Positions 53,009 to 64,000 of a stretch of DNA of 64,000 bases are shown here, in pieces (position 1 is the first letter of the stretch; every line of letters starts with the position of its first letter). The position numbers and the translations under genes were made by a program. The DNA is from Oculina patagonica (lineage: Eukaryota): assembly GCF_052425735.1 (NCBI RefSeq), contig NC_135769.1:20584001-20648000 (forward strand). The letters run 5' to 3'. The notes below the pieces were generated by a model. That model was not told where the DNA came from, searched no databases, and saw only the letters and a program-made list of their open reading frames with translations.

Positions 53009-56000
53009 ATTTATTAAAAAACGCCTTAAGAATTAAAATATTTAAGCTTTGTTGACGAGCATCGGCAACCATTTTTGTGGTCAATGGTATATGAGCTCAT
53101 ATAAAATTGTCTGTCAACCAATCAAAACTCAGGAATTGCAATATACCATTGCTAGTTTTTAATAAAAGAGGGAAAAAGTTTAAACCAGGGGACGGAGCCT
53201 ACCGTATAAAAATCTGTTGGGTGATCCCCCCCCCCCCAGGGGGAGTAAACCATACATACATTATCTAATGACGTAACACTTAATTGAGCTGGAGTACAGT
53301 TTACCTTGGGCGATGACACACAGGAATACTATGGCCAGTATCACTGTGGAATGTACCCCGCTTCTGAAGTAGTTCCAGTATAGCTTGGATGACACGACTC
53401 CAATTACGCGATCTTCTTCCTGTGTTTGAAGACTCCTGGCTTCATTGCCTTCAAGAGCATCAGAAAATTGACTTTTCTCTTCTTTTGCTAAAATCAAGTC
53501 ATGTACTTCGTTTCCCCTCACAGCGGTCTTGTAAAGTGGATCTTCCTTTGTGCATAAAATGTCTTTCTCTTGCAGCTCGATAAAACGTCCTTTTCCAAGC
53601 ACGCGACCTTTGTTAAGTACAATCACTTCATAGGCCTCCTTCATGTACTGTTCTTCATGACAAATCAATACTCGAGTTTTATCGCCCAGCAAACCTTTGA
53701 TGCATTGTCTAAAGATGTGCTGACCAACCTTAAAATCCACAGCACTCAGAGGGTCGTCCAACAAGTAAAGGTCTGCATCAGCGTAAACTGCGCGTGCTAA
53801 GCTTACTCTTGCCCGCTGGCCTCCACTCAGAACTGCACCGCATTCACCAACAACCGCCTGGTCAGAGTCGGGGAATTGTTGGATGTCTTTCGTGAGTGCA
53901 CACGATTTTATAACATTGTTGTACTTATCTCCGTCATATGACTGACCAAACAAAATGTTTTCTCTTATTGTCCCTGAGAAGACCCAAGCTATCTGGGGAA
54001 CATAAACAAGAGTCCCTTGGCAGATGATTGTTCCGCTCATGTCTGAGACCTCGCCAGCGATTGCTGAGAGAAGAGTAGATTTTCCACTGCCTACTGGACC
54101 AGTAATGACCGTCAAACTTCCTGCAGTTGAAGTGAATCCTATATCTTGCAGAACTGTTTTCTTGTTTTCTGGTTTGTACGTCAAGTTTGACACGCAAATA
54201 GCTGGTCTGCCGTTTTGTTCTACAATGTTGGAAATGTGCGGACTTTCGTCTTTATCGTTAATCAGACAACTTTGTAACTTTGCCGAGTTTCCTACAAAGT
54301 CACTTCTGCGCTCTGAAGACTGATTACAGGGAACTGATTGCAGATTGTCTAAGAGAAGAAAATCTTCTATCCTGTTGAGGGACACGTAAGCCTCGTATAT
54401 CGCTAACAAGCCATAGGCTAGACGATGGCATACGCTCATTCGTACTATATTGATGAAAGCGAGCAGCATGAAGACATTAACAGCTGTGACAGGCTGGTCA
54501 GTTAGTACAAGGGTGATAACAGCTACCAGGGTCGCCATAGGAGCTGATGCGTATTCCAAGCCAGCAACAGTTGACAGAATAATATTCTTCTTATGGATGA
54601 TGCCGATTTCATGTCTGAAAACAAAGCAGACTTTTTGAGTTATAATCAGTAAATAACCTCGTTCCCAGGGCTTTTCCCTTGAAATCCAAGGGAAAAGCCC
54701 TGAGAACGAGGTTGATCAGTAAACTATTTTGTCTGAAGATAAATTGTTATGCACTTTGCAACCGTGCCGTTTTTCGCAATAAGTGCAGCACAAAACTAGT
54801 TGCGCTAAGTTTGTCTTGTTTCTGTTGACTTGTTCCTGTCGTGGTTTTGTTAATTCAACAATTATTTCACGAACGTGCGTTGGATATGAGATGGTAGATA
54901 GCCAACCAGGAACAAGGCGCGCGTCCAACAAGCGCGAGTGGAATAACTGTTTTATTAAAAACGTTCGCATCTTGATGAAGCGGGGAGGTTATTAGTGATT
55001 GGAGTTATAAAGTAGGCAGGGAGGAGGAAGGATGGGGCGGGGGCGGGGGGGGGGAGACTAGCTGAATTCTTTCAAGGTGCCATTAGTCATGCAGCAACAA
55101 GATTACATTCTGTTTACCTTCGTGTAGTTTTTATCCTATCTCGGTACTCATCTTCCCACGCATGCGTTTTGATAGCGCGGATTCCAGAAACGGCCTCGTT
55201 CATGAAAGAGATGCGTTGGTCAGACACGTCGGCAGTGCGCAGGCGTAGCTCTGCACCAGTAGAGGACAACAGGATTAAATATGGTATAAGGAATAACAGG
55301 AAAAGGACTCCCATAATTGCCTGCCAGCCGATCAGGTACACGACTAAACTCGTGCCTACAGTGAAATCAAAAATCGTAGGGACCATGTGGGAGATCCACA
55401 TGGGAGCTTCCTCCATTCGCTGCACATCATTAGACACGAGGTCAATCACGTGACCAGTGGAAAATTCTATTAATGCTTGCTTGCTGAGAAGAGAAGTCTG
55501 GATAAAGGTAAAAAAGGCTGCTGTCAAGAAACATTCTTCATAGACGGAGCACATAAGCTAACTTATTAAGGTCGGGACACACTAGGCGACAATTAAGTCG
55601 CAGCGGCAGGTCTCTGCGACAAGTCGCTCCGTTTGTACTGCTTCAAAACAAGGCGCTTGTTCGGTGCACACGCAGCGAATTGGGAAGAGTGAGAATGTGA
55701 ATTAACTATTTTCCAATTCAATATGGCGAAAATACATGACGCTCTCTCATTGGTTAATTTATATTTTGTCGCAGCGACTTGTCGCAGAAGTATGCACACG
55801 CTGAGCAACGCTGCTTTCGCTCATTTTGTCGCTGCGATCAGTCGCACGAATTCAAACTGGTTTAAATTCGTGCGACTGATCGCAGCGACAAAGATTGTCG
55901 CAAAAATGCACCATGTCACATGAGGCAACATGTTGCAGCAACCTGTCCCCGCGACATCAGTGCTGCAGAGACTTGTCGGCTAGTGTGTCCCGACCTTTAA

Positions 56001-56946
56001 TGTACCACTCACACCTAAAATTATTTCACATTTAGCCAAGCTTGATGGTGTTCGTACTATGCTACGCACTCGAGTTACACAACAGTCAAAAATATAAGAT
56101 TGTATGGGGAGAAGAACTAAGTTATTTAACCTGAAAATACCAGTGAATTGACCAAAAAATGACTTACCTCGCTTCAGTAGTTTTTCCTTTGTTTTCAGTG
56201 AGGTTCGAAGGTAGTTTTCAGTTCTACTGCTTTGCCCTACCAACCCCCCACCCCCCCCCCCCAAAAAAAAAAACCGACTGAAGCGAGGTAAGTTATTTTT
56301 TATTCAAAACTCATCGCTCGAATTGTAAGGATTAAACACTCAGTGTTATTCTCCCAACAATCCTTATATTTATCCATTACTGTTTGAGGTGCATATAGGC
56401 TACGTAACTTACCTTAATGTAGACGAGTCCCTTTAACGCGCTGCGAAGTTTAATGCCCAACATATCATTCGTAAAAAAATAATGATGCAAGGCGATGCTC
56501 TTGATTAAATGATTAGCAGCCATAGCTAATGCACAATCGTAAAGAAGAACATTTTTCTGTGGCTCCTCTGATGATATCAATGCGGAAACAAGAAATCCAA
56601 GGAACAACGCTTGCAAAATGCGACCAACTGATTCTAAAAGTCCCGTCGCGACGATGATTAAAACTTCTTTAACAGAGACCATTTTAATCACACTTTTCCA
56701 AAGTTTTGATCTTTTGTTGTTGCGTTTACTGCTAGCTTTCTCGTCGTTCCATTTAACTTGCAGCTTTTCGGTCACTGAACGAGTTTCGTTTTCTTTCGAG
56801 AGCGGTAAAAAATCACCCTGCTCTAAAGCTCGTTCACTTCCTATATTAACGACTTCGTTCATCCATAGAAAGAGAAGGCGGGATAAAATGCTAAAGTTTT
56901 CTTCATCGTCTTTGGCGGAGATCTTTTTGTATCCACTTCTTTTCAT
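46927..56946 (-). CDS. ABCC4: ABCC4/MRP4-like ABC transporter, 1281 aa (exons 56413-56946, 55118-55497, 53305-54614, 51947-52517, 50644-50780, 46927-47840)
   Basis: TMD1-NBD1-TMD2-NBD2 with no TMD0. NBD1: [29 protein letters not shown]2: [23 protein letters not shown]. Exons sum to 3846 nt in frame. Exact orthology among ABCC4-like paralogues is uncertain. Confidence 0.88.
48206..50484. mobile_element. piggyBac-like non-autonomous element (2.3 kb) in last ABCC4 intron
   Basis: TTAA-CCCTTTCACTCCT ... AGGAGTGAAAGGG-TTAA. Internal ~130-bp tandem duplication (~48988-49255) and a nested PLE fragment. Confidence 0.8.
49511..49985 (+). mobile_element. Penelope-like 3' end with inverted partial copy and hammerhead motif
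   Basis: Peptide [36 protein letters not shown] (GIY-YIG C-terminus). 49511-49635 is the reverse complement of 49758-49801 plus 49905-49985. CTGATGA-T-GGTATA-GTT-TATACC-GAAA at 49866-49892. Confidence 0.7.
50985..51297. mobile_element. MITE (CATTCTCGTCCCC...GGGGACGAGAATG) with 9-bp TSD
   Basis: GTCCGGTTC duplicated at 50976-50984 and 51298-51306. Confidence 0.85.
54654..54714. mobile_element. 61-bp palindromic MITE with 9-bp TSD
   Basis: AACCTCGTTC..GAACGAGGTT. ATCAGTAAA duplicated at 54645-54653 and 54715-54723. Confidence 0.8.
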
Positions 56947-57957: not shown

Positions 57958-58110
57958 AAAACAATTATTGGATTCGGTTTTCGCATGATAGCGATAATTA
58001 TCAAGGCCTCAGTTTCTGTTATCCGCCTCAGCCTTCGGCTTCGGCAGATAATAGAAACTTTGGCCTTGATAATTATCGCTATCATGCTCAACCTCATCCA
58101 ATAATTGTTA
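57958..58110. repeat. Palindromic repeat with GCCTTCGGC central hairpin
   Basis: aacaattattggat...gataattatcaaggcc...ggccttgataattatc...atccaataattgtt. Confidence 0.7.
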
Positions 58111-58420: not shown

Positions 58421-58584
58421 ATACCTAATCGTACCTTTTTGGTACGCTTCGGCTGCGTATCAGGCGAGTTTGGTCTCGCCATGGTTCGTATTTTGGCGAG
58501 ACGCAGTCGAGCCAAAGTACCAATGGCGAGACCAAACGAGCCTGATATGCAGCCGAAGCGTACCAAAAAGGTACGATTAGGTAT
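58421..58584. repeat. Near-perfect ~165-bp palindrome
   Basis: atacctaatcgtacctttttggtacgcttcggctgc ... gcagccgaagcgtaccaaaaaggtacgattaggtat. Confidence 0.85.
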
Positions 58585-58796
58585 TTACCGTACCCAAATT
58601 CAGCCAAAAATCCGGCTATATTTATCGCTTTGTTGAAGCCATGCTTGCAAGGTACGTACTGCAAATTGCGTTGATCATGATTTGGTCTTGAACACTTTTA
58701 CCAAGTTCCTCTTCTGCCTTTTTTTTCCACTCGTTTGTTTAGAGTTTCATTCTCTAAATTTTCAAAATTAAAATTAAGCGAAAAATTTGGAAATTC

Positions 58797-59223
58797 AGTA
58801 GTGTACCCCCAGCAGAATTACTACCATTTTTGAGCAGCCATCTACTAAAAGTGAGCAGCTAGAATAAATTAATTTTGGATGACGTCATAATGGGGTGTGT
58901 GGCTTATGTCTAAAATGCGCGGGAATCTTTAGTGAGGTGAAATAAATTAAAATAAAATGCGCGCGGGAATTTATGCAGCATTATTTATGCCTTGACGTCA
59001 CGACACGATAAGTCTACTTGATTGATAGATTGACAGAGTAGGGAACATAGTCTACTTGAGAGCACTTGTTCCACTGCGGATCGAAGTGAGAGAATTTTAT
59101 AAGAAGCTCCGTTTTTAAATTACTTAAGATATCTTTCCTTTAGCTTACTAGAGGTTTTTGAAGCTCAAATAGATTGAATAAATATTCACGATCGAGCAGA
59201 CAGAGGCTTAACCATGCATTGTT
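58797..59223 (+). repeat. Left terminal inverted repeat (~427 bp, outer boundary inferred)
   Basis: The inner 120 bp match the window end in reverse complement. The outer boundary is placed at the AGTAGT terminus typical of Polintons. Confidence 0.7.
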
Positions 59224-59301
59224 CTCATACAAAGCCGGCGAACGCGCTTGAGTGACCACGGATATAAACATTAGGATTTTAGCGGAACCGAATCGCCTAT
59301 T

Positions 59302-60044
59302 AGAGATGTTTCACATAACTCCACTAGGTACGCAAATTAACCACTGTTGTTGGAAACACCTACTAAATATGCAAATGACAAATTAAACAATGAAAGACCG
59401 TTTGTTGTCATCTTCTCAACCGCTCAGACAATGTAATTATGAATGAAAATTCAAACAATCTTCATGACTATGACACCGATTATATTTTGTATTTTGCACA
59501 GTCTTTCCTGTCTGATGAACGGCTTCGGGATTAAGCCTAGAATTTCACTTTTACCTTTCTTGAGTATACCGTGCTACCAGTTTTTACTTTTACGTTTAGA
59601 AGAATTATAGACAATTATATATCATTAAACAGTACGACATGTCGCTGGGCCAAAAATGTACAAAGTTTACTTTTCTGTCTGATGAACGGCTTCGGGATTA
59701 AGCCTAGAATTTCACTTTTACCTTTCTTGAGTATACCGTGCTACCAGTTTTTACTTTTACGTTTAGAAGAATTATAGAAAATTATATTAAACAGTACGAC
59801 ATGTCGCTGGGCCAAAAATGTACAAAGTTTTACAACGACGGGCTGAAACAATTGGGGATGGCCCGGTATGTCTTCTTCGTTAGAATGAACATTTAGTCCC
59901 ATAGAAATAATTTTCTATTTTTCCTGCCATGCAACATGGCCGCCATGCAAAATTTCACACCAGAATCAAATTTGCATCATTAGAAGGTGTTTCCCACTAC
60001 GGTGGATAATTAGCGTATGTAGTGGAGTTATGCGAAACATCTCT
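59302..60044. mobile_element. MITE nested in the Polinton, with internal ~168-bp tandem duplication
   Basis: ~75-bp imperfect TIRs agagatgtttcacataactccacta.. / ..tagtggagttatgcgaaacatctct, ATT on both flanks. ~59507-59667 is duplicated at ~59675-59828. Confidence 0.65.
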
Positions 60045-60283
60045 ATTATGTACAGAACGAGTCGCGTGAAGAAATATTAAAACTAATTGGTTGCACACAC
60101 GGATTGTAAGTAAAAAACCCTTTTATTTCAATAGTTCAATTTAACGAATTACAATGATTCTCAGTGATTTTAAAAGTAAACACTGCGTTTTGAGCGGCGC
60201 GAAACTTAGACACTGAACACACAAATTGTAGCAAAACTTTATTTACTTCGGTCGTTCGACACAGCGTATCACAATGATGAAAT

Positions 60284-61624
60284 TTAATAATCGTCTTCAT
60301 GTCCCTTGGAATATTTGTAAGGTGAGGTTCTGTGTAAACGCCGTGATTGTCTAGAAGGCCTCTTCGGTTTATCATCCAAATAATTTACTAAGCGAATTTG
60401 CGGGCGTTTACGCTTTTTAGGTGGGGACATTTCCACTGTGGGAGGAGGGGTCAAGATCGATGGAGGAGGGGAGGGAGGTAAGGGAGTGGAGGTTGCCATG
60501 GAAGTAATCACTTGTGGGTCTGGTGCTTGAACTGGAGTGGCTGGTACTGTCGCCAGTTCTGGACTCGGAGTTGGTACTGTTGGTAAATTCTCTGTGGTAG
60601 ATATTTGTTTCTTGTCTTGGGGTTCGGCCCACATTGTTGCCTCAGGTATAGAGTTAAGCTGGTGTTTGTACGTCAGAAACCTGTTTTGTAGCTGCATATA
60701 CTGCCTAGCTTTTTCGTCTTCTCCAAGGTCATTACGGGATAGAAGGCCATCCATTTTATTCTGCAAGCGTTGTATCTCCGTAACTACTGGGGCAGCCACC
60801 AGGTTTTGCTGCTTGAGATATTTCAGGAGTTCTTTAGAAACGCTGCCTTCTACTTCCCCGTTATCGAATCGTTCTTCACCAGGCAATACATTTGTTCGCA
60901 ATCTGCAACTGTCTTGAGTGGTTGGCTTAAGGTCAATAAACAGATAACCAAACGGTCTCCGCACCGCTTCTTCGTATTGTTTTATAAACCAAGCAGTTTC
61001 TCCAGGATACATTTGTTTCGCTAGGGTTAAAATCTGTAGCTTGTCGCGGGGATTCTTGAAAAGTAGCAAGTAATGACTGTTTAAGCTGATGCTTCTGTTA
61101 CCTTTGCCTTGATGGAACAGGTTTTGCACAATGTATACGACACTCAAGTTTCGATGATGGGAACCCTTTGTGAACAGGTTCACGATCCGATTATCACTCC
61201 CAGCTTCAATCATTTGGTCATCAATGACAATCAAGTTTCGTATATTAACATCAAAGAAGGAATCTTGTTCAAGAGTTGAGGGTATACCCTTGATGAATTC
61301 AATTCCGGGTATCGTCAACAATAACTCGCGATAGGCAGGTTGCCATTGAGAATAACACCAAACAATTCTCTCTGGAGGTGGGTGGATTGTCTTGTGAGCC
61401 TGTTGCAACAAAGATTTGACCCACACCGTCTTTCCCGAACCTGTCATTCCCGCCACCATACAGGTAAACGGATGCCCCAAGTGAAACCGCTGACACTTTT
61501 TTGGAGAAACCGACAAAGCTTGAAACGGAGGGAAACCGGAAGTGCTATGTTTACTGCTCATGTGTCTTTGCATGCTATCTTTTCTAGAAAAATTCTTTTG
61601 ACAAATAGGACAGGGCCAACTCAT
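60284..61624 (-). CDS. A32/FtsK-HerA-type viral DNA-packaging ATPase (Maverick type) with N-terminal C2H2 zinc finger and C-terminal extension
   Basis: C2H2 CPICQKNFSRKDSMQRHMSSKH; Walker A GMTGSGKT; Walker B LIVIDD; FTKGSHHRNLSVVYIVQNLF; SLNSHYLLLFKNPRD; PFGYLFIDL. Intronless and intact, with minus-strand AATAAA at ~60238-60243. Confidence 0.85.
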   Translation of the reverse strand: MSWPCPICQKNFSRKDSMQRHMSSKHSTSGFPPFQALSVSPKKCQRFHLGHPFTCMVAGMTGSGKTVWVKSLLQQAHKTIHPPPERIVWCYSQWQPAYRELLLTIPGIEFIKGIPSTLEQDSFFDVNIRNLIVIDDQMIEAGSDNRIVNLFTKGSHHRNLSVVYIVQNLFHQGKGNRSISLNSHYLLLFKNPRDKLQILTLAKQMYPGETAWFIKQYEEAVRRPFGYLFIDLKPTTQDSCRLRTNVLPGEERFDNGEVEGSVSKELLKYLKQQNLVAAPVVTEIQRLQNKMDGLLSRNDLGEDEKARQYMQLQNRFLTYKHQLNSIPEATMWAEPQDKKQISTTENLPTVPTPSPELATVPATPVQAPDPQVITSMATSTPLPPSPPPSILTPPPTVEMSPPKKRKRPQIRLVNYLDDKPKRPSRQSRRLHRTSPYKYSKGHEDDY

Positions 61625-61841
61625 GTCAACTGAACGAAAGGTTTACACAAACTGACAAAATGTGTGATGTTTCACAATTATATATTACATATAAACCATT
61701 NNNNNNNNNNNNNNNNNNNNNNNNNNNNNNNNNNNNNNNNNNNNNNNNNNNNNNNNNNNNNNNNNNNNNNNNNNNNNNNNNNNNNNNNNNNNNNNNNNNN
61801 NNNNNNNNNNNNNNNNNNNNNNNNNNNNNNNNNNNNNNNNN

Positions 61842-62535
61842 TTGTTTAACTCCACCACCGCCACCACCACAATCTATTGTTTAACTCCACCACCGCCACC
61901 ACCACAATCTATTCTTTAACTCCACCACCGCCACCACCACAATCTATTGTTTAACTCCACCACCACCACAATTCTATTGTTTAACTCCACCACCGCCACA
62001 ATTCTATTGTTTAACTCCACCACCACCACAATTCTATTGTTTAACTCCACCACCACCACAATCTATTGTTTAACTCCACCACCACCACAATTCTATTGTT
62101 TAACTCCACCACCGCCACAATTCTATTGTTTAACTCCACCACCACCACAATTCTATTGTTTAACTCCACCACCACCACCACCACCACAATCTATTGTTTA
62201 ACTCCACCACCACCACAATTCTATTGTTTAACTCCACCACCGCCACAATTCTATTGATTAACTCCACCACCACCACAATTCTATTGTTTAACTCCACCAC
62301 CACAATCTATTGTTTAACTCCACCACCACCACAATCTATTGTTTAACTCCACCACCACCACAATTCTATTGTTTAACTCCACCACCGCCACAATTCTATT
62401 GTTTAACTCCACCACCACCACAATTCTATTGTTTAACTCCACCACCACCACCACCACCACCACAATTCTATTGGTTAACTCCACCACCACCACAATTCTA
62501 TTGTTTAACTCAACCACCACCGCCACCACCACCAA
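61842..62535. repeat. Minisatellite (TTGTTTAACTC(CAC)nACAATTCTA, ~27-40 bp unit, ~20 copies), adjacent to assembly gap 61701-61841
   Basis: Directly visible. Unit length varies with the number of CAC triplets. Confidence 0.95.
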
Positions 62536-62570
62536 TAAAAGGATATATCGTACTAACATTAGTTCATTCT

Positions 62571-62903
62571 ATGATTATGTCTCGTGTAGTTAAGAACAAT
62601 CGAGGTTTCCTTCGACTCTTAGCCGACTGTCCTTCTTATCAGCGTCAGTTTCTTCTAAAGACGGCCACGCCACAACAGATACACGCATTAGTGCAACTTA
62701 TTTATAACGTTCTCACGGAAAACATACCGATCCCTGAAGAAGATAGGCGTAAATTGATGCCATATAAGGATGCTCTAGTCAACCTCGCTGAACCCAATGT
62801 TCCCTTCAAGACAAAGAAGCAAATTCTTGTACAAGAGGGTGGAGGCTTTATTCAAGAATTGCTGACCCCTGTTATAAGTAGTTTGGGGCTTCTTATGTTA
62901 TAA
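62571..62903 (+). CDS. Small Maverick/adintovirus-type protein (110 aa) ending QEGGGF + hydrophobic tail
   Basis: Pattern R..LL..A....I..L.....N.L..N.P......KL...K..L..LA......KK..L.Q.GGGF...LL.P.I..LG recalls the small conserved ORF found next to the ATPase in Mavericks (family recognition from memory). Confidence 0.7.
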   Translation: MIMSRVVKNNRGFLRLLADCPSYQRQFLLKTATPQQIHALVQLIYNVLTENIPIPEEDRRKLMPYKDALVNLAEPNVPFKTKKQILVQEGGGFIQELLTPVISSLGLLML

Positions 62904-62965
62904 AAGCAAAGCCGCATCCTAAAAAATGATCATTTGTATCTTGCTTTTAACAAGTGCTTATCGAT

Positions 62966-63793
62966 ATGAAGAGAAAGGTAGAATGGGATGATGAAGAGGA
63001 GGAAAGTGGAAAAGAAGACAATATATCCTCTGATGACGAGAGTGACAGCGAAGAACCCCGGATACAAGATGTCTTAAACAATCTCTCCAAAGCCGTTTCA
63101 AGAAAATATGCTTCTGAACTGCTGCATAGTATGGCCACCTCCAAAGATATCTTGTTTTGGACTCCCCGCGGACAATTACTCCGAAATCAACGTATAATAC
63201 CAGTAACAAACATCTCAGAGCTGGTTGAGTATGTTCTACTTCCATATAACGATGATGTAGCCAAACCCTGTGCACTCAATACCTTCCTGGAGGGACTGGC
63301 AGAGCTTGGGGTTAATAAGCGTTTGATAAAGAATAAGAAAATTCTAAGCGATATATTACAAAAAGAACAAGCCTATCGCGATAAAGAGGAAGAGGTTGAC
63401 GACGGTAACTCGACTGACAGTAACGAAGAGGAGGAAACACCTTCTGAGGAGGGTATTGAAGATGAAGAATCTCAAGAGAGCGACAGCGACAGCGATGAAG
63501 AAACTGAGAATAGCGATTCTGATAGTTCAGCTTTAATTCACGCAAAAGCTCATAATCCATGTCAACACTGCGAAGGTCCGAAGGTATATGATACTGCGGT
63601 CATGAAATGTTTTTGGGAAGATAACTGTAAAATTTGTCCTATATGCGAGCACGAGATTCCACTAGACCGAAAGTACGGAAAACACAGTTTGCGTCGATGT
63701 TATGATTGTGGAGCAATCATACACAAGAACGAAGAGACTTCTAAAATTACTTACTATCCCCCTAGAAATGACGAGGACGAAGACGATTCTTAA
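62966..63793 (+). CDS. Maverick-type accessory protein with acidic tracts and Cys-rich C-terminus
   Basis: Core ILFWTPRGQL....IIPVTNISELV...P.ALNTFLEGLAELGV...LIKN resembles a conserved Maverick accessory domain. Long D/E/S tracts, several CxxC pairs, AATAAA at ~63824. Confidence 0.65.
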   Translation: MKRKVEWDDEEEESGKEDNISSDDESDSEEPRIQDVLNNLSKAVSRKYASELLHSMATSKDILFWTPRGQLLRNQRIIPVTNISELVEYVLLPYNDDVAKPCALNTFLEGLAELGVNKRLIKNKKILSDILQKEQAYRDKEEEVDDGNSTDSNEEEETPSEEGIEDEESQESDSDSDEETENSDSDSSALIHAKAHNPCQHCEGPKVYDTAVMKCFWEDNCKICPICEHEIPLDRKYGKHSLRRCYDCGAIIHKNEETSKITYYPPRNDEDEDDS

Positions 63794-63874
63794 ATTCATC
63801 ATTGTAATGTGTTGAGCGATTAAAATAAAGTTTTGCTTGATTTACAATTTGTGTGTTTAGTGTCTAAGTGTCTA

Positions 63875-64000
63875 AACAATGCATGGTTAAGCCTCTGTCT
63901 GCTTGATCGTGAATATTAAACTATTCGATAGCTATTTGAGCTTCAAAAACCTCTAGTAAGCTAAAGGAAATATATCTTAAGTAATTTAAAAACGGAGCTT
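63875..64000 (-). repeat. Right terminal inverted repeat (partial, truncated by window)
   Basis: Reverse complement of 59104-59223. Confidence 0.85.

Follow-up and report, generated by a model that had tools for sequence, protein, structure and literature searches.

Capsid-less mini-Polintons with a selected three-gene cassette in the coral Oculina patagonica: a likely satellite lineage of full-size Polintons

What kind of element keeps a predicted packaging ATPase and carries no gene for replication, integration or a capsid? The question is raised by a locus in a 64,000-nucleotide stretch of the Oculina patagonica genome (the window; NC_135769.1, positions 20,584,001 to 20,648,000), which an earlier note had described as a miniature Polinton/Maverick bounded by terminal inverted repeats (TIRs). 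We compared it with autonomous animal Polintons/Mavericks and Beta-type adintoviruses (PMC8502044, PMC8097293) and with coral polintoviruses (PMC11131425). The locus probably belongs to an old, multi-copy lineage of capsid-less mini coral Polintons with a selected three-gene cassette, a satellite of full-size Polintons with its own predicted packaging module.

Results

The left end of the element, AGTAGT at 58797, lies immediately 3′ of AAATTC, as had been noted. The right end had been predicted near 64307, with ACTACT and then AAATTC upon extension and a total of about 5.5 kb. Genome sequence beyond the window bore this out: the right arm runs on to ...ACTACT followed by AAATTC, the right end falls at window-equivalent 64308, the total length is 5,512 bp, and the 6-bp target duplication is perfect on both sides. 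Over 434 bp, the two arms share 97% identity. The features of this copy are as follows.

58791–58796, no strand: left AAATTC of the 6-bp target-site duplication (its right counterpart follows 64308, just beyond the window)
58797–59046, plus strand: outer left TIR; bases 28/31–250 match the TIRs of two 15.2-kb Polintons (L022/23 and L024/25) at 91–93% identity
59047–60298, plus strand: inner left TIR, specific to the mini-element, reaching the ORF1 stop and broken by the 59303–60043 insertion
59303–60043, no strand: 741-bp MITE-like sequence inserted secondarily, with inverted ends of 79 nt and duplicated TATTA
60238–60243, minus strand: AATAAA 3′ of ORF1
60284–61624, minus strand: ORF1, 446 aa; C2H2 zinc finger, predicted A32/IVa2-type packaging ATPase, helical segment and Pro-rich tail
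61842–62534, plus strand: central tandem array (visible portion), ~30-bp unit, in the divergent spacer
62571–62903, plus strand: ORF2, 110 aa; GasderminX-family protein (by predicted fold and sequence)
62966–63793, plus strand: ORF3, 275 aa; acidic N-terminus, homologue of the C-terminal half of a 258-aa helper protein, acidic linker and cysteine-rich domain
63779–63872, minus strand: inner right TIR remnant, 76% identical to 60201–60298; contains AATAAA at 63824–63829 (plus strand)
63875–64000, minus strand: right TIR, extending beyond the window to 64308

The first 27–30 nt of the left TIR differ from the tips of the two 15.2-kb Polintons, which, with the other full-size elements sharing ends with the mini-elements, we refer to as helpers. 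The 741-bp insertion contains an internal duplication (162/167 bp) and is missing from sister copies; in two sequencing runs, a joint skips 746 nt at this place in the left arm. In the right arm, a deletion of ~230 bp directly follows the 63779–63872 remnant. The repeats noted earlier (59104–59223 and 63875–64000) are real visible parts of a family TIR that is longer than had been thought, at ~760–830 bp in subfamily A and 1.0–1.5 kb in subfamily B, and that extends to the 3′ ends of ORF1 and ORF3; its full extent is masked in this copy because of the left-arm insertion and the right-arm deletion. Evidence for expression is weak, consisting of contigs from four sequencing runs, three of which are RNA only by guess, with non-coding TIR and flank covered as well. 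Loose ends in three runs correspond to the pre-insertion junction.

The N stretch at 61701–61841 does not hide several kilobases of core genes, a possibility that the earlier note had raised: the genome stretch gives an identical total length, and sister copies have the same layout with a spacer of 0.2–1.5 kb at this place. The unit of the adjacent array combines CCA triplets with an ACAAT-N3-ATTGT palindrome. An array is found at the same place in distant relatives, whereas helpers have none. Read as a coding extension of ORF2, it is in frame with an upstream ATG in 2 of the 11 copies scored, and database homologues show mixed frames.

As had been claimed, three open, intronless frames are arranged divergently around the array, ORF1 on the minus strand and ORF2 and ORF3 on the plus strand. 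Of the polyadenylation signals reported with them, those after ORF1 and ORF3 were present and none was found between ORF2 and ORF3. ORF1 comprises a zinc finger (residues 4–26; zf-C2H2, E 1.3e-5), an ATPase domain (~48–252; Pox_A32, E 1.6e-4, below the cut-off), a helical segment (262–352) homologous to the N-terminus of a 258-aa helper ORF (E 6e-10), and a Pro-rich tail with a basic cluster. The ATPase is 52% identical to that of the helper and retains its motifs (Walker A 17/18; Walker B, Arg-finger-like and QN motifs 18/18). A low-confidence structure model of ORF1 (pLDDT 43) gave no meaningful structural match, and zinc fingers were the only matches of its sequence to the PDB.

The model of ORF2 (pLDDT 88) matched the GasderminX protein of a Terrapene adintovirus in Foldseek (TM 0.88, E 2e-6). 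ORF2 is 40% identical to a helper ORF and far less basic than the relatives that full-size elements carry (median net charge +4, n = 13, versus +18, n = 75); the tripeptide QEG is fixed in 13/13 mini-element sequences, whereas 47/75 distant relatives have Q[KR]G. It had no PDB match at E 0.001, its ESM Atlas matches were unnamed clusters only, and its distant relatives carry no informative names. A domain of ORF3, whose conservation was judged over 45 homologues, matches the C-terminal half of the helper 258-aa ORF (E 8e-12, 25%) and had no usable match in the ESM Atlas. The cysteine-rich domain is likely zinc-binding, judging from its sequence; in this copy its motif is three residues shorter than in sister copies. 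By homology, then, the cassette is the helper's block of zinc finger, ATPase, GasderminX and 258-aa protein, reshuffled, with the 258-aa homology split between ORF1 (N-terminal part) and ORF3 (C-terminal half). The earlier note had overlooked that ORF2 and ORF3 are also genes of the Polinton module.

The same cassette occurs at a minimum of 38 places in this coral genome, the search of which scored 147 of 407 ATPase candidates. The absence of polymerase, integrase, protease and capsid genes, alongside a predicted packaging ATPase, held in all 34 cassette loci fetched (protein-primed DNA polymerase B, 0/34; RVE integrase, 0/34; major capsid protein and protease, 0/34), and the closest capsid match to any of the 38 places lies 215 kb away. 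AGTAG ends and distinct 6-bp duplications bound 17 of 28 examined copies, with sizes of 3,952–6,079 bp.

All three genes are under purifying selection. Between subfamilies A and B, which have diverged to dS ~0.5 and share the same rearranged layout, dN/dS is 0.09 for the ATPase, 0.22 for ORF2 and 0.06 for the ORF3 core, far below the neutral value of 1. In the ATPase of the L011/L041 pair, 50 synonymous stand against 18 non-synonymous changes (p 3e-23). Shared variants of the ATPase have dN/dS values of 0.07 and 0.05 versus 0.41 and 0.43 for private ones (p 4e-3 and 5e-5), a contrast that was not significant for ORF2 and ORF3. All three frames are open in only 8 of 28 copies, the other 20 being broken, and private dN/dS (~0.4–0.67) reflects decay of copies after insertion; selection therefore acts on the mobile lineage and not on fixed host loci. 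The element is neither a one-off copy nor a product of simple decay, in keeping with the earlier view: ends, target duplication, copy number and selection all fit.

Near-identical cassettes carry unrelated outer ends, which fall into six types (T1–T6), a swapping between copies that had escaped the earlier note. The cassettes of L039 and L041, for instance, are 99.3% identical while their outer 170 nt are unalignable, and the AU test rejects a single clade for end types T4 (p 2e-4), T5 (8e-54) and T1 (0.026). The ends of full-size Polintons match T1 (91–94%) and, in parts, T5 and T6 (81–97%); at their extreme tips, however, T1b (this copy) and T6 do not match the helpers. Among the loci fetched, T2, T3 and T4 had no full-size partner. 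The 20 stretches fetched for T2 and T3 yielded just two leads: in L176, an 86-nt match to T2 adjoins a decayed polymerase, and an inner 145-nt part of T3 recurs in a polymerase-like element of 11.7 kb. For T4 we considered the ends of a distant full-size family and rejected them: the polymerase-bearing element concerned (L188/L192) is bounded by a TIR and duplication of its own and stops 1.1 kb inside the T4 end.

Since its ends are common to 15-kb Polintons, the mini-element appears to depend on a helper, as had been proposed. It is not a deletion product of these Polintons, because its ATPase is only 52% identical to theirs. Across the interior, protein identity to the end-sharing partner is 25–52%, the order is rearranged and the genes form their own clade, which leaves the earlier suggestion of a defective-interfering element, read as a fresh deletion, unsupported. 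For comparison, in L059/60, an 8-kb palindrome recently derived from a helper, the same gene block has been kept twice. Many TIR-bounded mini-elements lacking the ATPase also bear fresh target duplications (L018, L021, L028, L071–074, L077–079, L081 and L090); the ATPase is therefore unnecessary for movement. Zinc-finger genes are common to all small families seen. Full-size Polintons sharing ends encode their own ATPase. More generally, an ATPase match lies within 13 kb of 54 of the 66 capsid-gene places; of the remaining 12, 9 belong to one family, in which the only member checked carries a divergent ATPase of its own.

The lineage is found in several organisms, in Porites as well as Oculina; homologue rows with a share under 0.2 or of 0.00 were left out, X20 excepted. 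In metagenome contigs, core genes accompany 0/62 loci with the zinc-finger-fused ATPase, 29 of which are below 3.5 kb and too short to exclude neighbouring genes, versus 9/18 loci with a plain ATPase. Seventeen fused-type metagenome loci have the divergent layout, which recurs in contigs at 45–72% protein identity, and four have AGTAG ends with a 6-bp duplication at 4.1–5.2 kb. The single locus found in viral contigs is a full-size element with a plain ATPase. Fused-type ATPases form one clade (12 rows, support 100/100) with no full-size member. Separate origins for the S1 and S2 ATPase families were unsupported (p-AU 0.27). In the literature searched, we found no description of such a mini-element.

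Discussion

Judged by its gene content, the element lacks essential functions that co-resident full-size elements could supply, and its own genes are under selection as an independent lineage. In the mechanism that we propose, a helper active in the same cell would provide polymerase and integrase acting on the borrowed outer 200–350 bp of the TIR; new ends may be acquired, through recombination or template switching, from linear genomes replicating alongside, and then copied into both arms. The ATPase-fused zinc finger would bind the mini-element's own DNA, with the central array as candidate site, and bias packaging toward it. GasderminX and the split accessory domains could be the satellite's own versions of the corresponding virion or packaging proteins of the helper, and the predicted packaging module would carry the mini-element into helper capsids. 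We tentatively extend this, by analogy, to the idea that corals may carry true satellite viruses of polintoviruses: capsid-less genomes of 4–6 kb that redirect helper capsids through their own zinc-finger-guided predicted packaging ATPase and change helper by terminal-repeat capture, with S2 (at least one further ATPase-bearing family in the same genome) doing likewise, as an animal counterpart of phage satellites.

Alternatively, the element could be a coding non-autonomous transposon with no virion stage, copied and integrated in the cell by helper enzymes, whose three proteins help it to replicate, be transcribed or integrate. This seems unlikely to us but fits every selection result equally well; mini-elements without the ATPase also move, and zinc-finger genes are the common denominator of the small families. 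Yet what has been retained is a packaging-type ATPase with intact motifs together with its operon neighbours, and this ATPase class is tied to genome packaging in related viruses. Presence in several organisms would also be easier to explain with an infectious phase, vertical inheritance being an alternative. The fall in ORF2 charge, the fixed QEG and the copy-back style palindromes in the same pool (L059/60, L071–074) would suit an interfering element. On this view it persists because it dampens full-size Polintons, to the benefit of host and mini-element, with the altered ATPase and the less basic GasderminX acting as decoys in helper assembly. We rate this lower still: a pure decoy need not keep the strongly conserved catalytic motifs, and the copies decay after insertion. 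Interference is compatible with the satellite reading.

That the mini-element is one segment of a multipartite (split) polintovirus, giving its ATPase to a partner segment without one, had been suggested earlier and is largely refuted, leaving it very improbable. Ends are indeed common to larger elements, helpers without most of the polymerase exist (L051/52), and no capsid genes were detected in the 11.7-kb polymerase-like element (L183/L196); but nearly all capsid places have an ATPase nearby or belong to the family in which the one member checked has its own, the end-sharing helpers encode theirs, and ends are unstable across copies. Least credible of all is ordinary decay, in which internal deletion products of a full-size Polinton inherit the selection signal of their parent. 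Non-autonomous derivatives are common among TIR transposons, a minority of the ATPase candidates was scored, and one assembly might lack the parent. Against this stand the rearranged layout common to both subfamilies and to the distant contigs, the lack of core genes in all 62 and all 34 loci, and the selection on variants shared within subfamilies.

With autonomous Polintons, the mini-element shares the (AGT)2 ends (motif as in PMC8097293), long TIRs, a 6-bp duplication, intronless ORFs and an FtsK/A32-type ATPase adjoining GasderminX; it differs in its size of 4–6 kb, in lacking polymerase, integrase, protease, hexon and penton, and in its zinc-finger-fused ATPase, split neighbour gene, divergent layout around a tandem array and exchanged outer ends. 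Like non-autonomous TIR or MITE-like elements, it would use helper enzymes on shared ends and has many copies with distinct target duplications. Its interior, however, does not derive from the end-sharing element, is under purifying selection and forms one lineage across hosts. Non-autonomous Polinton families exist in Repbase. The phage satellites PICIs, PLEs and P4 are small, integrated and helper-dependent, redirect packaging and carry a packaging-related gene of their own. The mini-element resembles them in all but the redirection, and would work like them if the mechanism proposed here holds; unlike them it is eukaryotic and Polinton-derived, has captured helper ends and has no integrase or replicase, and we claim no homology. 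Virophages and Polinton-like viruses, parasites of giant viruses, likewise exploit another virus and share the A32-type ATPase class, but they encode a capsid of their own; the mini-element lacks one, and its helper is probably a Polinton.

It has long been asked whether animal Polintons form infectious particles, and the arguments made so far draw on selection in full-size elements (PMC8097293, PMC11131425). Selection for a packaging-type ATPase in a lineage without capsid genes makes most sense if there are helper particles that repay exploitation. The published coral survey demanded both capsid genes and a length of 10–50 kb, and therefore could not count mini-elements, which offer a short, abundant marker to seek in coral viromes. 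They also narrow the minimal gene set likely to travel with the ATPase to a zinc finger, GasderminX and the 258-aa protein, all of them functionally uncharacterised, and point to terminal-repeat exchange as a way of changing helper.

Structure of the window copy

The mini-element starts with AGTAGT at 58797, directly after AAATTC, and the right end that an earlier note on this DNA had predicted, ACTACT followed by AAATTC, was found in the genome, giving an element length of 5,512 bp. The terminal inverted repeat (TIR) arms of this copy are 97% identical over 434 bp. The three open frames described in that note are present, and a tandem array separates ORF1 from ORF2 and ORF3, with ORF1 pointing away from both:

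60284-61624, minus strand, ORF1, 446 aa
61842-62534, visible part of the central array of tandem repeats
62571-62903, plus strand, ORF2, 110 aa
62966-63793, plus strand, ORF3, 275 aa

When checked against the genome, the N stretch of this copy concealed nothing large, and the empty-site junction is visible as loose ends in three runs. Secondary lesions mark this copy: the left arm has gained 741 bp by insertion, the right arm has lost ~230 bp by deletion, and ORF3 is short of three residues. The stretch is also present in coral metagenomes, which, together with the homologue names given below, points to a stony coral as host. The insertion site is a high-copy repeat with a flank depth in the hundreds, and several short inverted-repeat elements lie to its left between 55568 and 58584 (58421-58584, 57983-58087, 56148-56307, and 55568-55997). 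Elsewhere in the window, 3325-8250 holds diverged tandem arrays with units of 203 bp and 78-82 bp.

Full-size elements and the origin of the three genes

The mini-element shares this genome with full-size elements that measure 14.5-15.5 kb and are flanked by duplications of their own. Their integrase was confirmed by Pfam; the capsid, the protease, and this family's polymerase are putative assignments by position and similarity to other full-size elements. Their gene block of zinc finger, ATPase, 110-aa ORF, and 258-aa ORF equals the gene content of the mini-element, in which the order is reshuffled. ORF1 joins a C2H2 finger, an ATPase (52% to that of the full-size helper), and helices from the N-terminus of the 258-aa protein; ORF2 corresponds to the 110-aa protein (40% identity); and in ORF3 the 258-aa protein's C-terminal domain (25%) is combined with a cysteine-rich domain. 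PZ and Adintoc2 are candidate identities for the 258-aa protein. Alignment of 18 homologues showed intact ATPase motifs in 17-18 of them.

ORF2 has a confidently predicted fold, and the model matches GasderminX of Terrapene adintovirus, the sole structural match with E <0.001; a search of the PDB with ORF2 found no gasdermin match. Starrett et al. (PMC8502044) class GasderminX among the virion accessory genes and describe its C-terminus as pX-like. ORF2 of the mini-element is much less basic than the versions in distant relatives. One 15.5-kb element of full-size type (L051/L052) has integrase, capsid, protease, and ATPase genes and only the last few codons of a polymerase.

Copies in this genome and beyond

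ORF queries against the genome DNA returned 46 matches in one search (40 of 49 candidates scored) and 44 in another (40 of 43); these counts are lower bounds, and the merged matches fall in at least 38 places. The copies comprise subfamily A (94-97% to the window copy), subfamily B (83-86%), and older remnants. Among 28 closely examined copies, 17 measure 3,952-6,079 bp and have AGTAG ends flanked by a 6-bp duplication with no more than one mismatch; an open frame was seen in 11 copies for ORF1, 17 for ORF2, 15 for ORF3, and 8 for all three together. Several B copies inserted recently, since their arms are 99.6-99.8% identical over >1 kb. No polymerase, integrase, protease, or capsid match was obtained in any of 34 fetched loci with the three-gene cassette, and no cassette lies closer than 215 kb to any of 66 capsid places. 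In the genome-wide capsid count (G000), at least 66 places hold a Polinton capsid gene, in at least five families, one with ~30 near-identical copies.

ORF1 has 699 relatives, many of the best 120 being full-length at 56-95%, and its closest named homologues among the matches listed are from Oculina patagonica; ORF3 has 469, with Porites among the names given. Of 93 confirmed metagenome loci, 80 were kept. None of 62 fused-type loci has a core gene (29 of the 62 are <3.5 kb), as against 9 of 18 plain-ATPase loci. The divergent layout recurs in 17 loci, two of them with the ORF3 tail only, and four loci (4.1-5.2 kb) have AGTAG ends and a 6-bp duplication. In a 31-row ATPase tree, from which three rows were excluded for short cover, 12 fused-type ATPases form a single clade (100/100) without a full-size member. 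The central array keeps its position in fused-type relatives and is not present in helpers. Its ACAAT-N3-ATTGT palindrome, which resembles a paired HMG-box (SOX) site, is kept in distant relatives (L097, L103-105, L108, L119, L128, L138, L145); in the ORF2 frame the array reads as Pro-rich repeats.

Selection on the cassette

Between subfamilies A and B, pairwise dN/dS was 0.09 in the ATPase (dS 0.56), 0.22 in ORF2, and 0.06 in the core of ORF3, computed on 22-24 of the 28 copies (cover >85%) in mutually dependent pairs; three single pairs gave p from 1e-5 to 1e-37. These dN/dS values exceed the ~0.001 reported for fish Mavericks by other methods (PMC8097293). Within subfamilies, ATPase variants shared among copies had dN/dS of 0.07 and 0.05, whereas private variants had 0.41 and 0.43 (p 4e-3 and 5e-5), a contrast indicative of a mobile lineage under selection whose inserted copies decay. 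The same contrast was not significant for ORF2 and ORF3.

Exchange of outer ends

The TIRs are modular, with a subfamily-specific inner part and an outer 170-360 bp of six types (T1-T6). Loci L039 and L041 have cassettes that are 99.3% identical, whereas their outer ends are unalignable. An ORF1 tree of 25 copies rejected a single clade for T4, T5, and T1, with nine end labels based on partial end matches and a signal that recombination within the cassette would mimic. T1 ends are 91-94% identical to two 15.2-kb elements, and T5 and T6 ends match two other full-size elements in parts (81-97%). No full-size partner was found for T2, T3, or T4 among the fetched loci; a candidate for T4 failed. 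The same ends also serve other mini families, whose ATPase is different or missing. At L192/L193/L188, a T4-type end lies 1.1 kb outside a full-size Polinton of 18.8 kb from a distant family, which may have inserted into a T4 mini-element.

Mode of propagation

The mini-element is real, multi-copy, selected, and widespread, and it stands outside the autonomous Polintons. That it is not the product of simple decay, as the earlier note held, is borne out by a multi-copy family without core genes, by purifying dN/dS, and by the same cassette in fused-type relatives elsewhere. The note's other suggestion, one segment of a split virus, fails since the helpers possess their own ATPase. The lineage lacks capsid, polymerase, and integrase, yet inserts with Polinton-type duplications, and therefore must use helper enzymes. 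Its way of life resembles that of a helper-dependent satellite. The outer TIR would be the part recognised by the helper, probably renewed by recombination and then copied onto both arms, and the cassette may act as a packaging module favouring the mini-element's own DNA. Against this mechanism, ATPase-less mini-elements move too, and half of the end types are without a partner.

Non-autonomous Polintons are included in Repbase. A literature search, with most subscription papers outside its reach, found no description of a coding Polinton satellite that keeps the ATPase. A published coral polintovirus screen demanded both capsids and 10-50 kb (PMC11131425), and polymerase-less Polintons with cargo, of a type different from the mini-element, have been reported (10.1101/2025.02.07.637071).

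Other mini and derivative elements

A second ATPase-bearing mini family, S2 (L020, L075, L076, L086, L088, also L080), encodes a different zinc-finger-ATPase fusion of 462 aa (~35% to ORF1), a divergent 174-aa gene, and often a 160-aa cysteine-rich gene; it has its own central array with an 11- or 22-bp unit and ends from the T1, T2, and T4 pools. Elements of ~11 kb with 2.36-kb TIRs (L183/L196, L184, L185) carry a zinc-finger gene along with a 965-aa polymerase-like ORF, with capsid, integrase, and ATPase matches absent in the stretches read. Near-palindromic elements of 5.3-6.1 kb (L071-L074, L083) have T5-type ends and fresh 6-bp duplications and are without an ATPase; L071-L074 hold a zinc-finger gene and the 174-aa gene in each arm and a partial or whole leucine-rich-repeat-like ORF with a hydrophobic N-terminus. 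A palindromic element of 7,980 bp (L059:6840 to L060:6819), derived from a full-size one and with a 6-bp duplication, carries two copies each of the zinc finger, the ATPase, GasderminX, and the greater part of the 258-aa ORF, and little besides.
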